Assembly: GCA_964599405.1 (NCBI GenBank)
Contig: CAZRED010000004.1
Location: forward strand, 1-55,361
Reading direction: 5' to 3'
Source of the DNA: an uncultured Candidatus Saccharibacteria bacterium
Lineage (GTDB): Bacteria; Patescibacteriota; UBA1384; 2-12-FULL-50-11
DNA length: 55,361 nucleotides
In this document: positions 8,964 to 28,156 of the stretch, piece after piece
How the letters are laid out: each line of letters begins with the position of its first letter
Position numbering within the stretch: position 1 is the first letter of the stretch
Notes under the pieces: model-generated
Told to the model about the DNA's origin: nothing
What the model saw: only the letters and a program-made list of their open reading frames with translations
Databases searched by the model: none
Program-made: the position numbers and the translations under genes

Positions 8964-9398
8964 TTGGAAGAAGAATTCTGTGAAACGCACTTTACAATGT
9001 TCGTCCGGGCGCTCGACAGCTACCCCGGCGGCGTCACCACTGGGAACGACCTCAAAGACTTGGCTGACTTGGTTATAAAAGAGTGCTGCAAGAGCCACGC
9101 TCTAGACGCACTAATGCTAATGGCCGAGAAGGATTTCCGACTGTACCGGGAGTATGTTGTCGAAGGGTTTGAGCAGTTGGGGGCCGCCAAAGCGCTTAAT
9201 TGCCTTGAGATGGCCGAAGAAGCGGATACTGACATGTCCGTCTTTCTTGACCTATTCGATAAGGTAATCAAAGAAGATAGCCAAGCGGTTTACTTGCGAA
9301 TGTTTCCGTACGTGATTCATTTTCGAGAGGAAGAGATACTGGCCCACATTGATCGCACCAGTAACGCTTCAGCAGCGCTACTAATCATCGAGCTATGA
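8964..9398 (+). CDS. Hypothetical protein
   Basis: Own promoter, SD GGAGG 6 nt before TTG 8964, terminator at 9412-9436. Confidence 0.65.
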   Translation: MEEEFCETHFTMFVRALDSYPGGVTTGNDLKDLADLVIKECCKSHALDALMLMAEKDFRLYREYVVEGFEQLGAAKALNCLEMAEEADTDMSVFLDLFDKVIKEDSQAVYLRMFPYVIHFREEEILAHIDRTSNASAALLIIEL

Positions 9399-24755: not shown

Positions 24756-24796
24756 GTGCGTCCCTCTCTGGGAGAATTTTAGCACACTATTGACAC

Positions 24797-24813
24797 ATTT
24801 GGTATTTGTTCGG
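24797..24813 (+). promoter_or_regulatory. Putative LexA operator (degenerate) between TTGACA and TATATT
   Basis: atttggtatttgttcgg; matches the lexA and dinB promoter motif. Confidence 0.65.
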
Positions 24814-24826
24814 CTATATTGAATGT

Positions 24827-25087
24827 ATGGAGGCAATCGAAACGTTTCAACGCTTAGAAGAACCAATTCGGGTAATTGCCAGTTTCGATGGCCCAAAAAT
24901 ACGGTTGCATTCATTTGAATGGCGGGAACGAATTTACCAAGTTGAGAGCGTTAATCTGTTCCATATTGAAAAAGACGCCAAGAAGTCGCTCTACCACTTT
25001 GCCGTAACGGCTGCCGGCAATGACTACGATATCGTCTTTAACCCTGTTAACTTAACTTGGCAGCTCCAGGAAATAGCCAATGTTTGA
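24827..25087 (+). CDS. Small beta-rich protein, DUF6504-like
   Basis: FEWRERIYQVESV...YHFAV...YDIVFN...WQL pattern; ATG 6 nt after TATATT. Confidence 0.7.
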   Translation: MEAIETFQRLEEPIRVIASFDGPKIRLHSFEWRERIYQVESVNLFHIEKDAKKSLYHFAVTAAGNDYDIVFNPVNLTWQLQEIANV

Positions 25088-25149: not shown

Positions 25150-25416
25150 TTGAATAGGCCGGAGTACTTAGTACTGCTTCGTCCCACAAACGACGGCTGG
25201 CAAGCCGTTATTTTGAAAGATGAGGCCACGATCTGCACCGTACTACCCAACACCCGAGAACAGCCAAAAGTGGTTGAATCCTGGTGGCTGGACTACCTGG
25301 TTAAACAATCGCCGGAAACTGATTGGTTAAAATGGGAGCCGATTAATGTAGCAATCCAGCGAGTTCCGGTGAAAGTTCCCAACGACATTGCTTGCATCCT
25401 GATAAAACATCTTTAG
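25150..25416 (+). CDS. Hypothetical protein
   Basis: SD-like GAAGGA, TTG start, terminator at 25415-25445. Confidence 0.55.
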   Translation: MNRPEYLVLLRPTNDGWQAVILKDEATICTVLPNTREQPKVVESWWLDYLVKQSPETDWLKWEPINVAIQRVPVKVPNDIACILIKHL

Positions 25417-25456
25417 AAGCGCGAAGACCGCGCTTTCTCTTTTTTACACATTGACC

Positions 25457-25473
25457 GTTCGGTGTTTGTTCGG
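25457..25473 (+). promoter_or_regulatory. Putative LexA operator filling the -35/-10 spacer of the dinB promoter
   Basis: TTGACC-gttcggtgtttgttcgg-CAGGAT. Confidence 0.8.
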
Positions 25474-25485
25474 CAGGATGAAAAG

Positions 25486-25554
25486 ATGTTGAGTCAAATT
25501 ATTCTACACCTAGACATCTCCCTCCGCTACGCTCCGGTTGAGCTCCAAATGTAA
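25486..25554 (+). CDS. uORF / duplicated DinB N-terminus (22 aa, MLSQIILHLDISLRYAPVELQM)
   Basis: ATG 6 nt after the -10; IILHLD identical to the DinB start; stop 1 nt before the dinB ATG. Confidence 0.55.
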   Translation: MLSQIILHLDISLRYAPVELQM

Positions 25555-25555
25555 G

Positions 25556-26851
25556 ATGAACATCATCTTACATTTGGACATGAACTCTTACTACGCCACA
25601 ATGGAACAGCAGGCATATCCTAGCTTGCGGGGCCGGCCGATCGGCGTAGCCGGGAAGGGGAGGGGGGAGCGGACGGTGATGGTCGGCGCCTCGATTGAAG
25701 CTAAAAAGTTGGGGATACGCGGTATTATGTCTACTTGGGAAGCCAAGAAGCTCTGTCCGGAAATAATTATCGTCCCCGCCAACTACGACCGTTATATTTT
25801 CACCAGTAAACGGATTTTCGCCATGCTGGAGCGTTTCAGCCCCAAAGTGGAAATATTCTCGATTGACGAAGCCTTCATCGAACTGCCCAATCGCTGCAAC
25901 TGGGACGACGCCGTTCTAATTGCTAAACAAATGAAACGACTGATCCGCACCCAGATTGGCTCGTGGGTTAGTTGTTCAATCGGCATTTCCTACGGCCGGA
26001 CATTGGCCAAGTTAGCGAGCGAGCTACAAAAGCCGGACGGATTAACTGTCATTCGCCCAGAGAACTTTACGGAAATTGCCGCCAAGACCCGCATAGAGGA
26101 ACTGTGTGGAATTGGCTGGCGGATTGGGCCACGCTTAAACCAAATGGGGATTTTCAGTATTGCCGAGCTGGGTAACACACCGGCGGAGATGCTGATTAAA
26201 ACCTTCGGGCCGCACACCGGCAGCTGGCTGCACAATATTGGGAATGGCATTGACGACGGACGGCTACGCTCGTTTCGGGAGTTGCCCCAAGAAAAGTCGG
26301 TTGGGCACTCATATACCTTGCCGCAAGACATCTCTAACCCGGGTGATGCCAGGCGGACGTTATTATTGCTATGCGAACGGGTGGCGGTGCGATTGCGCCG
26401 AAAGGGGTTGCTGGGCCGTGGTATCACCCTCTACTTACGTTTCGGAGATAAAACCGGCTTTGGTCAGCATTTATTAACCCAAACCTATTTAGCGGACGGC
26501 TATCAAATATATTTAGTGGCAGAAAAACTGCTAGCCAGCTCGCCGCTGGGCAAACCGATTCGCTTAGTGGCCGTTAGTGTCTACGAGCTGGTCAAACAAG
26601 TGGAGCACACCAAACCGCTCTTTCTAGACGAACAGCATCACGAAGAGCTGCTGGAAGCGCTGGACAGCATCAATAACCGCTACGGAGAGTTTACCGTTCA
26701 CCGAGCGGCTTTGTCGCGGGTGAAAAAACGGATTTTCAAATTGCCCGACGGTCGCCATAAGCGGCTCTACACGCCGGAGACAGAGAGCGACCAGGCCAAC
26801 CTGCGCCGCCGCAGTATTTCTACCAGCCCCTTCATGAAAAGATTGGGGTAG
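25556..26851 (+). CDS. dinB: DNA polymerase IV (Y family)
   Basis: ILHLDMNSYYA, SIDEAF, LAKLASELQKPDG, KSVGHSYT. Confidence 0.95.
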   Translation: MNIILHLDMNSYYATMEQQAYPSLRGRPIGVAGKGRGERTVMVGASIEAKKLGIRGIMSTWEAKKLCPEIIIVPANYDRYIFTSKRIFAMLERFSPKVEIFSIDEAFIELPNRCNWDDAVLIAKQMKRLIRTQIGSWVSCSIGISYGRTLAKLASELQKPDGLTVIRPENFTEIAAKTRIEELCGIGWRIGPRLNQMGIFSIAELGNTPAEMLIKTFGPHTGSWLHNIGNGIDDGRLRSFRELPQEKSVGHSYTLPQDISNPGDARRTLLLLCERVAVRLRRKGLLGRGITLYLRFGDKTGFGQHLLTQTYLADGYQIYLVAEKLLASSPLGKPIRLVAVSVYELVKQVEHTKPLFLDEQHHEELLEALDSINNRYGEFTVHRAALSRVKKRIFKLPDGRHKRLYTPETESDQANLRRRSISTSPFMKRLG

Positions 26852-27508: not shown

Positions 27509-27528
27509 ATTAAAATAGCCCTTGACAC

Positions 27529-27544
27529 GTTCGGTATTTGTTCG
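27529..27544 (+). promoter_or_regulatory. Putative LexA operator in the lexA promoter spacer
   Basis: TTGACA(27522)-cgttcggtatttgttcg-TAAATT(27545). Confidence 0.85.
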
Positions 27545-27556
27545 TAAATTGTGTTT

Positions 27557-28156
27557 ATGTTAACACCAAAACAAAAACAGATTTTGGATTTTATCGAGAA
27601 GTTTACGAAAGAAAACGACTATGCGCCTAGTTATCGCGAAATTGCTGAGAACTTCGGCTTTAGCTCGGTAGCCACAGTGGCCGAACACGTGGAAAACTTG
27701 AAAATTAAGGGTTACTTAACCAACGATGAAGGCTATCGCTCGCTGCGGGTAGTGGGAATAGAAGTAGAACCCGGTTCGGTGTTCTCCGGCAACGTACCAC
27801 TGTTAGGTGCAATTCAAGCTGGTAAGCCGATTGAAGCGGTGCGGACCAGTGAAACACTGGAGATTCCCCGGGATATGATGTCCAACAATGTTTTTGCCCT
27901 AAAGGTGAAAGGGGACTCGATGAAGGATGATGGAATTTTAGATGGCGACTACGTGGTAGTAGAGCCCTGCCAGAGCCCGAAAAACGGCGACATTGTCGTA
28001 GCGCTAATTAATAAAGACGAAGTGACTCTGAAGCGTTTTTACCGTGAGAAAGACCATATCCGCCTGCAACCAGCCAACACCCAGTTCAAACCAATTCGGG
28101 TGAAAAAAGTGGTAATCCAGGGCAAGGTCCGCGGCGTGATTAGAAAATTTAGGTAA
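27557..28156 (+). CDS. lexA: SOS repressor LexA
   Basis: LTPKQ..IL.FI, PSYREIA HTH, Ala-Gly cleavage site (QAGKP), GDSM Ser, TLKRF Lys. Confidence 0.97.
   Translation: MLTPKQKQILDFIEKFTKENDYAPSYREIAENFGFSSVATVAEHVENLKIKGYLTNDEGYRSLRVVGIEVEPGSVFSGNVPLLGAIQAGKPIEAVRTSETLEIPRDMMSNNVFALKVKGDSMKDDGILDGDYVVVEPCQSPKNGDIVVALINKDEVTLKRFYREKDHIRLQPANTQFKPIRVKKVVIQGKVRGVIRKFR

Follow-up and report, generated by a model that had tools for sequence, protein, structure and literature searches.

A candidate leaderless restart leader in front of dinB in a Candidatus Saccharibacteria genome

The dinB gene on contig CAZRED010000004.1 of an uncultured Candidatus Saccharibacteria bacterium, which encodes a Y-family DNA polymerase IV, raises the question of how its translation is started. 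No Shine-Dalgarno (SD)-like motif is present in the 18 nt preceding its ATG, the ATG lies inside a perfect hairpin, and residues from the beginning of the protein are encoded a second time in a short upstream open reading frame (uORF) that stops one base before it. Coordinates refer throughout to the plus strand of the window, i.e. the whole 55,361-nt stretch that was analysed, and G000 denotes its genome (716 kb, 13 contigs). An earlier reading of this DNA (the original prediction) had proposed a second, translational lock on a mutagenic polymerase, in which ribosomes on the leaderless uORF melt the hairpin and reinitiate; a bypass or excision switch and an insertion rescued by a new N-terminus were its alternatives. 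We consider it rather probable that ribosomes reach dinB by way of a leaderless uORF under LexA control, opening the hairpin as they advance, terminating at 25552 and restarting at 25556.

Layout and predicted expression of the dinB leader

The dinB transcription unit is composed of the following elements:

25416–25446, plus strand: intrinsic terminator of the upstream 88-codon open reading frame (ORF, 25150–25416), an 8-pair stem followed by a T run
25451–25456, plus strand: -35 hexamer TTGACC, separated by a 17-nt spacer from CAGGAT
25457–25471, plus strand: LexA-type operator GTTCGGTGTTTGTTC, a GTTC-N7-GTTC direct repeat that fills the promoter spacer (pattern match)
25474–25479, plus strand: -10-like hexamer CAGGAT, starting 12 nt before the uORF ATG
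25486–25554, plus strand: predicted leaderless uORF of 22 codons plus TAA (ORF reading, homologues in relatives)
25498–25517, plus strand: copy X1 of DinB N-terminal codons (IILHLD plus AT), from codon comparison with 25562–25579
25518–25543, plus strand: spacer between copy X1 and the hairpin, unique in G000
25544–25578, plus strand: hairpin with a perfect 16-bp stem (25544–25559 / 25563–25578) and the 3-nt loop ACA
25556–26851, plus strand: dinB, Y-family DNA polymerase IV, 431 aa (Pfam; start fixed by alignment with 22 relatives)

The uORF from ATG 25486 encodes MLSQIILHLDISLRYAPVELQM and ends with the TAA at 25552–25554, and a single g separates this stop from ATG 25556, which opens MNIILHLDMNSYYA... 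The protein carries the Pfam domains IMS (PF00817, 1.5e-37), IMS_C (PF11799, 6.1e-18) and IMS_HHH_1 (PF21999, 5.3e-09), so that the palm/fingers, thumb helix-hairpin-helix and little-finger domains of DinB/Pol IV are all present. The elements named in the original prediction (the uORF, the adjacent ATG, the doubled IILHLD, the 16-bp stem and the GACAT words 64 nt apart) were all recovered where it had placed them. IILHLD is encoded by ATT ATT CTA CAC CTA GAC in the uORF and by ATC ATC TTA CAT TTG GAC in dinB; five of the six codons differ (6 of 18 nt), with five synonymous and no nonsynonymous differences, and the probability that IILHLD survives six random nucleotide changes is P = 0.0001. 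Across 3246 start candidates of G000, only 4 places had six consecutive residues from the first 15 of the gene repeated exactly in the 150 nt before it. GACAT occurs at 25513 and again at 25577 (25513+64), and joining the sequence across these 64 nt gives MLSQIILHL-DMNSYYA; reading the sequence thus confirmed that the block can be removed with the frame kept. A mis-assembly at the palindrome, a concern raised originally, is unlikely, since an independent Logan contig from a run of possibly the same sample shows 0 differences over 601 nt (contig-level data) and relatives carry homologous structures; the other two runs listed for that sample yielded no contig over this stretch.

The 5' arm of the hairpin contains both the uORF TAA and the dinB ATG, while the 3' arm consists of dinB codons 3–8. 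The stem lengthens to 23 nt at 87% complementarity, the extended form beginning at 25537. The fold of the 141-nt leader has a z-score of -3.37 and was equalled by none of 200 shuffles. Locally, a free energy of -26.0 kcal/mol and a probability of 1.00 that the AUG is paired were predicted, and none of 200 shuffles of the 32 nt upstream of the ATG was as stable. By prediction, therefore, the dinB start, which is sequestered and has no SD, would be inaccessible on its own, as expected for a translationally coupled gene. No T/U run follows the stem (CATGAACTC follows), which argues against an intrinsic terminator or attenuator at 25544–25578. A search of the leader against Rfam returned no family at its gathering score; a sub-threshold match to a plant microRNA precursor (23.5 bits against 100) was taken as chance. 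An attenuator-like pairing of the uORF copy with the 5' arm (12 of 16 positions including G-U, with 4 scattered mismatches, aligned by hand) was considered and dropped; by eye, the alternative pairing is similar in L007 and L008.

The pattern GTTCGNNNTTTGTTC has two matches in the 716-kb G000, one in the dinB promoter and one in the lexA promoter, and the reversed control pattern has none.

27522–28156, plus strand: lexA with its promoter (TTGACA, box at 27529–27543, TAAATT, 6 nt, ATG 27557)

The lexA box, GTTCGGTATTTGTTC, lies about 2 kb downstream of the dinB box, and the lexA product matches LexA_DNA_bind (2.2e-17) and Peptidase_S24 (4.4e-33) in Pfam. Both promoters are built alike, with a -35 hexamer, a 17-nt spacer holding the box, a -10 hexamer, 6 nt and an ATG, and TAAATT stands at the same offset before the lexA ATG as CAGGAT before the uORF ATG. 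Sharing its operator with the promoter of a lexA gene in the same genome, dinB is by its sequence a predicted member of the LexA regulon. The SOS regulon of G000 seems to be minimal, with two strict LexA-type boxes only (dinB and lexA). The SOS box of alphaproteobacteria such as Caulobacter is listed as GTTCN7GTTC (Table 1 of PMC9578287), and its direct-repeat core GTTC-N7-GTTC is common to the dinB operator; Caulobacter belongs to a different phylum, however, and LexA binding in the window is a prediction. Similar boxes were found upstream of dinB or of its partner gene (see below) in relatives. Work by Sanchez-Osuna et al. in 2017 is said to treat the SOS network of Patescibacteria and may bear on the box and on the dinB operon.

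TANNNT hexamers starting 12, 13, 14 and 15 nt before the first ATG of long ORFs were counted in 57, 37, 26 and 30 of 560 cases, compared with 4–19 of 560 at most other offsets, and -12 is the genome-wide mode in G000. An SD-like 4-mer precedes 118 of 559 ORFs (21%). Because -10-like hexamers peak 12–15 nt before the starts and SD-like 4-mers are few, leaderless mRNAs appear to be the rule in G000. ATG 25486 would be located exactly where a leaderless start is expected: the -10 hexamer ends about 6–7 nt before this start codon, at which transcription is predicted to begin. CAGGAT occupies the modal -12 offset with the same geometry as in lexA, which bears out the original placement of the start site on ATG 25486.

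Upon DNA damage, LexA would leave the box in the promoter spacer, and transcription beginning at or beside ATG 25486 would yield a leaderless mRNA. 70S ribosomes would load on its 5'-terminal AUG and translate the 22-codon uORF. The dinB AUG at 25556, without an SD and paired together with the uORF stop in the 16-bp hairpin formed with codons 3–8, would become available to a ribosome that has reached the uORF TAA and has thereby opened the 5' arm; this ribosome would terminate and restart 2 nt downstream on the dinB AUG. DinB is probably made only by ribosomes passed on from the uORF, and its output would depend on, and scale with, uORF translation. The geometry, the box, the uORF ending on the ATG and the covariation described below all favour the melting and reinitiation that had been proposed. 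In G000, output of the one mutagenic polymerase would then be set at two levels, by LexA and by the ribosome relay, which bears on how much damage-induced mutagenesis is allowed in reduced genomes. The restart idea is testable with simple in vitro reporters.

The leader and its hairpin in related genomes

The relatives sampled were 162 genomes of the class, and the family was represented by 19 species genomes, in 17 of which the 5' end of dinB is visible (it is cut at the contig end in G006, and G014 lacks the N-terminus). Scans of sequence collections with the full-length protein contributed few loci, 4 in metagenomes and 3 in genomes. A self-copying uORF precedes dinB in 7 of the 17 family genomes (G000, G001, G002, G005, G008, G012 and G018), G012 having two dinB loci with the uORF at one of them (C6), and in the metagenome locus L034, one of two informative new metagenome loci. 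The encoded peptides include (V/M)SIILHLDISPCGLVSK, MSQRLILHLDILALKGSFSK, ...NNLILHLDILVFDSLSK, MRKILHVDILALAASLSP, MKKILHIDIFAHSSLSP and MNKIVLQISAASLRHMQDE. In five uORF-bearing relatives the uORF stop overlaps the dinB start as ATGA, and in these five the distance from the Asp codon to the stop is 9 or 10 codons; the indels are therefore multiples of three. Thus, in the window as in the ATGA relatives, the upstream stop lies within a few nucleotides of the downstream start, as in translationally coupled genes. The alignment of dinB 5' regions proposed in the original prediction accordingly yielded homologous uORFs that end on the dinB ATG.

The spacers of these uORFs are visibly homologous across genera; by eye, the window spacer (25518–25543) is homologous to the spacer of L002 and to the junction between the partner gene and dinB in L003. 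G008 and the window read their homologous spacers in different frames, so that the tail of the uORF peptide is not conserved, whereas its copied head is. Between the copied parts of the window and G001 uORFs 4 synonymous and 0 nonsynonymous differences were counted, and between those of L034 and G005 3 and 0. In the G008 uORF, Q and S replace the His and the catalytic Asp.

A start-burying hairpin more stable than all 200 upstream shuffles was found in 7 of 20 family rows (L001, L007, L002, L003, L005, L008 and L009, of which L008 and L009 have identical sequences), and L034 and L014 follow at 0.015 and 0.02 of the upstream shuffles. When 8 hairpin-bearing sequences were anchored on the His codon, at least two Watson-Crick pair types were observed at 6 of 21 offsets. 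These covarying offsets (-7, -4, -3, -1, +3 and +5) have two or three different Watson-Crick pairs each, and the 5' arm tracks changes in the dinB codons, so that the stem covariation for which the original prediction had suggested looking is present. The hairpins fall into two pairing registers: in one, the partner of the dinB AUG is the His codon CAU, and in the other, to which the window belongs, the partners are the Ile codons.

Relatives without the uORF reach the dinB start by other routes. A small gene that is conserved in relatives, here called the partner gene, ends on the dinB ATG as ATGA in G013, G016, G017 and G007; an unrelated leader ORF runs into the dinB ATG in L033, G003, G010 and G015; and in G004 the SOS promoter sits directly on the dinB ATG. 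Overall, some upstream ORF ends between -5 and +5 of the dinB ATG in 16 of 18 distinct family sequences. The terminator at 25416–25446 and the promoter context of dinB are also found in L033 and L037, and this terminator is predicted to isolate the dinB transcription unit from the upstream ORF. The partner gene of the window is located as follows:

24827–25087 (region noted, 24790–25087), plus strand: small partner gene of dinB, about 90 residues, conserved in relatives

Its product shows the motif ...FHIEKD...YHFAV.A.GN.Y...F.P..L.WQL and matches no Pfam family at E<=0.01. The gene is found upstream of dinB across the class (e.g. in L003, L011–L013 and L016), in many relatives directly upstream of dinB and ATGA-coupled to it; in the window, a separate leaderless-type promoter precedes it, which contains a half-degenerate LexA-type box, ATTTGGTATTTGTTC.

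Outside the family, one clear self-copying dinB uORF (G105) was found among 60 loci scored, and none among 11 further loci listed. The G105 copy (L090, G105:C5:31957-32376) reads RIITHID against RIIAHID, 21 nt with 2 differences, in-frame and independent; the 34-codon uORF around it stops about 30 nt short of the main dinB ATG.

Copied starts at other genes

A scan was performed for first residues of ORFs that recur in any frame within 160 nt upstream. In G000 it returned 14 matches, compared with 5 when the upstream sequence was reversed, and besides dinB two of them, at mreB and at a Phd-like gene, are clear. In front of mreB (Pfam 3.8e-140; G000:C1 ~73143-73353, minus strand, locus L047 1262-1394) a 32-codon leaderless-type uORF copies the first 12 MreB residues; 4 codons differ, all of them synonymously, and 20 nt are repeated exactly. 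The uORF starts at the conserved promoter of the family and ends 5 nt into mreB, a 6-bp hairpin lies over the mreB AUG, and none of the 29 other genomes examined has the 91-nt addition. G038 (L071) has a different, short uORF, which is SD-driven; its product MLARLFDRLN is similar to the MLNRLFG with which MreB usually begins, and the main mreB ORF of this genome begins with the atypical MPLVDKFWG. The Phd-like gene (G000:C2 ~24891-24940, minus strand, locus L138 992-1040) encodes a 294-aa Pro-rich protein with a weak N-terminal PhdYeFM_antitox match (25.1 bits, below the Pfam cutoff). Its 13-codon uORF, MLNVPINRQRRLK, copies 6–8 residues of the start, stops one base before the main ATG and contains the AAGGAG of the main ORF.

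On the main contig of G001 the scan returned, besides dinB, a tsaD/kae1-like gene (L152, minus strand, position 259488). Here a 26-codon uORF, whose ATG lies 7 nt after TAAAAT and whose stop codon ends 6 nt before the main ATG, copies 11 residues with 5 synonymous and 0 nonsynonymous differences. On the main contig of G004 at least 8 loci have a copied start (L194, L196, L199, L210, L179, L185, L186 and L203); the genes, named by eye, are NYN-like, YbaB-like, FtsW-like, GalE-like, LepA, RluB-like, SmpB and Tsf, and lepA and smpB have two uORF units each. Codon differences within the copies at the 11 non-dinB loci add up to 40 synonymous and 4 nonsynonymous ones; dinB was left out of this count because, counted from codon 1, its two copies are out of register. 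Where there is a single uORF, its stop falls between -9 and +10 of the main ATG at 8 of 9 loci, the YbaB-like gene at -70 being the ninth. With dinB counted, burial of the start was at or below 0.06 of shuffles at 6 of 12 loci. A common core of about 13 nt, GCAAAGCGAGCA, is present in either orientation in 6 of 8 G004 spacers, two of which begin with the same 13 nt at the junction; words of this core are only about 2-fold enriched genome-wide.

The same layout at genes as unrelated as mreB, the Phd-like gene, tsaD and the G004 loci argues against a lock specific to a mutagenic polymerase, as had been proposed, and lends support to the insertion rescued by a new N-terminus as the origin of the leader. 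The first codons of an originally leaderless gene may have been duplicated around a short insert, whereby the old start would have become the uORF and the new copy would carry the working start. As this layout recurs at unrelated genes, the leader looks like the product of a recurrent insertion/duplication process in the lineage that is not peculiar to dinB, the dinB leader being kept in part of the family. In a leaderless gene that receives an insertion, the old 5'-terminal AUG would stay the only ribosome entry, and the insertion would therefore survive only as a restart leader; in mostly leaderless genomes this would hold for insertions near starts in general. With 3 loci in G000, 2 in G001 and at least 8 in G004, and with almost purely synonymous differences, the copied starts point to an undescribed common route that creates leader ORFs and start-burying hairpins in bacteria of the Candidate Phyla Radiation. 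They are also a systematic trap for gene callers, as wrong or extended starts are possible.

Two ideas about the copies and inserts were abandoned. That the copy always stops at Asp is true of dinB, mreB, tsaD and the G105 dinB and fails in G004, where the last copied residues are Phe, Phe, Met, Met, Ile, Lys, Asn and Ile. The dinB spacer was also aligned locally with its flanks, to see whether it derives from the downstream coding sequence, by tandem duplication of its first 64 nt, or from upstream sequence; 1369 and 2000 of 2000 shuffles reached the scores, with similar spacer-flank alignments for mreB and the Phd-like gene. As shuffles reach these scores, the resemblance YA..E.Q between the uORF tail and DinB is likewise unsupported.

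Alternative explanations and known systems

Several observations weigh against the restart leader. CAGGAT is a weak -10 hexamer that matches TATAAT at only 3 of 6 positions, and a consensus promoter scan did not call the dinB promoter, its only call being the terminator at 25416–25446. An out-of-frame stop near a start is common by chance (26.5%, 296 of 1118 per-frame cases, window -5 to +8), and stop placement by itself is therefore weak evidence. The hairpin is not universal, as 10 of 20 family rows, including the uORF-bearing L004 and L010, were matched by at least 13% of shuffles. Possession of the uORF differs between close relatives (L010/L011, L004/the second G012 locus, and the window/L033 and L037 in the DinB tree); the leader thus seems to be gained, lost or replaced quickly and to be useful or tolerated, yet dispensable. 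Finally, plain coupling does not account for the near-absence of nonsynonymous changes in the copied part of the uORF, whether this is compared with dinB or with other uORFs. Two accounts of this bias would require no function of the peptide. Import of the insert-bearing 5' end from a diverged strain by homologous recombination fits, because the copies at mreB and the FtsW-like gene are mosaic, with the first 4–5 codons different and the remainder identical. The other account would be repeated overwriting by insert-free alleles.

Part of these observations would be expected if the uORF and hairpin were inert leftovers of an insertion, with internal initiation of the ordinary kind at ATG 25556 during transient openings of the hairpin. 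Housekeeping genes unrelated to dinB have the layout as well, its presence differs between very close relatives, and most genes lack an SD anyway (21% have one). However, structure over a start codon limits translation initiation, and ribosomes should be largely prevented from initiating freely at an internal AUG that lacks an SD and is covered by a 16-bp stem of -26 kcal/mol; moreover, the hairpin arms covary with the codons and the 3-nt indels hold the uORF end on the ATG. We therefore regard an inert scar as unlikely. A relic of a multi-copy palindromic or nuclease-borne mobile element that landed on start codons is suggested by the core of about 13 nt in 6 of 8 G004 spacers, by its two orientations and by the shared 13-nt junction start of two of them, and by eye the window spacer is like the G004 tsf spacer at 11 of 13 nt. 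Against such an element, the dinB leader is single-copy in G000, the G001 and G005 leaders have no second significant copy in the 5 genomes searched for each, with clear cross-matches only to other dinB leaders, the G004 core words show little enrichment, and no nuclease gene adjoins dinB. Many copies at unrelated sites of one genome, as are typical of repetitive extragenic palindromes (REP), Rickettsia palindromic elements (RPE) or miniature inverted-repeat transposable elements (MITE), were not found, and we consider this origin very unlikely.

Recombination or slippage between the copies could also act as a switch at the DNA level, deleting or expanding the insert and thereby tuning or phase-varying expression; deletion would give a leaderless, unlocked dinB, and the copy number of the unit would set expression. 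G018 has at least 2.1 exact 50-nt units at a contig start, the G012 (C6) copies have 20 identical nt in common, lepA and smpB of G004 carry two units each, and the 64-nt deletion in the window would keep the frame. At the window junction, however, the copies have only the 5 nt of GACAT in common, 6 of 18 nt differ in the IILHLD codons, and no tandem repeat is detectable. The uORF-free L033, L037 and second G012 locus have other leaders and are not precise deletion products, and contig-level data of one run show no variant. The excision switch of the original prediction thus finds little support in the window, where we judge it highly improbable; deletion or expansion is plausible where the copies are long and identical, as in G018 and G012. 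The last reading supposes that the insert is skipped, either by ribosomes leaving GAC 25513 and landing on GAC 25577 or by removal of 64 nt from the mRNA, so that the uORF copy supplies the real DinB N-terminus and the product starts MLSQIILHLDMNS..., and not with an MNIILHLD-type sequence as after restart. The take-off and landing codons do match (GAC/GAC), which is also a trivial result of duplication, the 64-nt gap is near the 50-nt gap of T4 gene 60, and skipping would explain the near-synonymous-only changes in the copied codons (5:0 here, 40:4 over the 11 other loci). On the other hand, the take-off codon is followed by ATC, which is neither a stop nor a slow codon, the hairpin does not begin there but 29 nt further on, and only 10 residues would have been made by then, too few for a signal in the ribosomal tunnel. 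Furthermore, the downstream ATG and N-terminal codons are conserved and are the sole start in uORF-free relatives, the G008 uORF has lost His and the catalytic Asp, and the Phd-like main start has its own AAGGAG. Apart from the matched codons, none of the defining gene 60-type features was present, and bypass or RNA removal at dinB is very improbable; bypass had been listed in the original prediction. We give the same very low credence to the wider claim that inserts are skipped in decoding across these genomes, by a hop between matched last codons or by mRNA removal, with the upstream copy as the working N-terminus; if it were true, DinB, MreB, TsaD and others would each be made from two alternative starts under different conditions, and the near-absence of amino-acid changes in the upstream copies would be explained.

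By analogy, the restart leader is of a known kind, translational coupling by a leader ORF that opens a sequestered start, and what is new is that ribosomes would enter it without a 5' leader, that its head copies the gene behind it and that the layout recurs across genes. In repY-repZ of ColIb-P9/IncI-alpha and tap-repA of R1, plasmid replication genes are translationally coupled in a leader-peptide-dependent manner: as proposed for dinB, a leader ORF is translated, terminates beside the main start and opens a start-sequestering hairpin. These leaders, however, have their own SD, are controlled by antisense RNA, involve a pseudoknot in IncI-alpha and encode peptides that are not copies of the main protein, whereas the dinB leader would be leaderless, has a LexA-type box in its promoter and encodes the beginning of the main protein a second time.

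Other published systems offer further parallels. In ATGA/TAATG restart and in the iraD leader, where a uORF is translationally coupled (PMC5574718), the upstream stop also lies a few nucleotides from a downstream start that depends on the upstream ribosome; these are ordinary operon junctions or SD-driven uORFs, and none was seen in these sources to copy the downstream N-terminus. In mycobacteria the first cistron can be a leaderless short ORF (Shell et al. 2015, PMC4633059), which begins at a 5'-terminal AUG and precedes the annotated gene, as predicted for dinB; self-copying and a start-burying hairpin are not described in the abstract of that study. Translational bypassing in T4 gene 60 (PMC5462505; bioRxiv 10.1101/2022.08.31.505936) likewise involves matched codons that flank a hairpin-containing non-coding insert of tens of nucleotides, which is linked to a mobile element. 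Gene 60 differs from dinB in the stop right after take-off, the take-off stem-loop and the long nascent-peptide signal, and in having neither a second start nor a copied N-terminus. A literature search found no published uORF that copies the N-terminus of its own gene.

Further repeats and insertions were noted at dinB loci and elsewhere. Runs of the motif TTGGGATTT/GGGATTTGG fill the intergenic leaders upstream in L005, L017, L018 and L024, and in L019 (G006) they seem to be part of an additional segment in the dinB frame. In G003, G009, G011, G027 and G033, about 40 residues are inserted in frame after DinB residue ~113. At G000:C3 ~9100-9230, plus strand, a long DHH/RecJ-like ORF is immediately preceded by a tandem direct repeat of about 42 nt, whose 2 copies have diverged.

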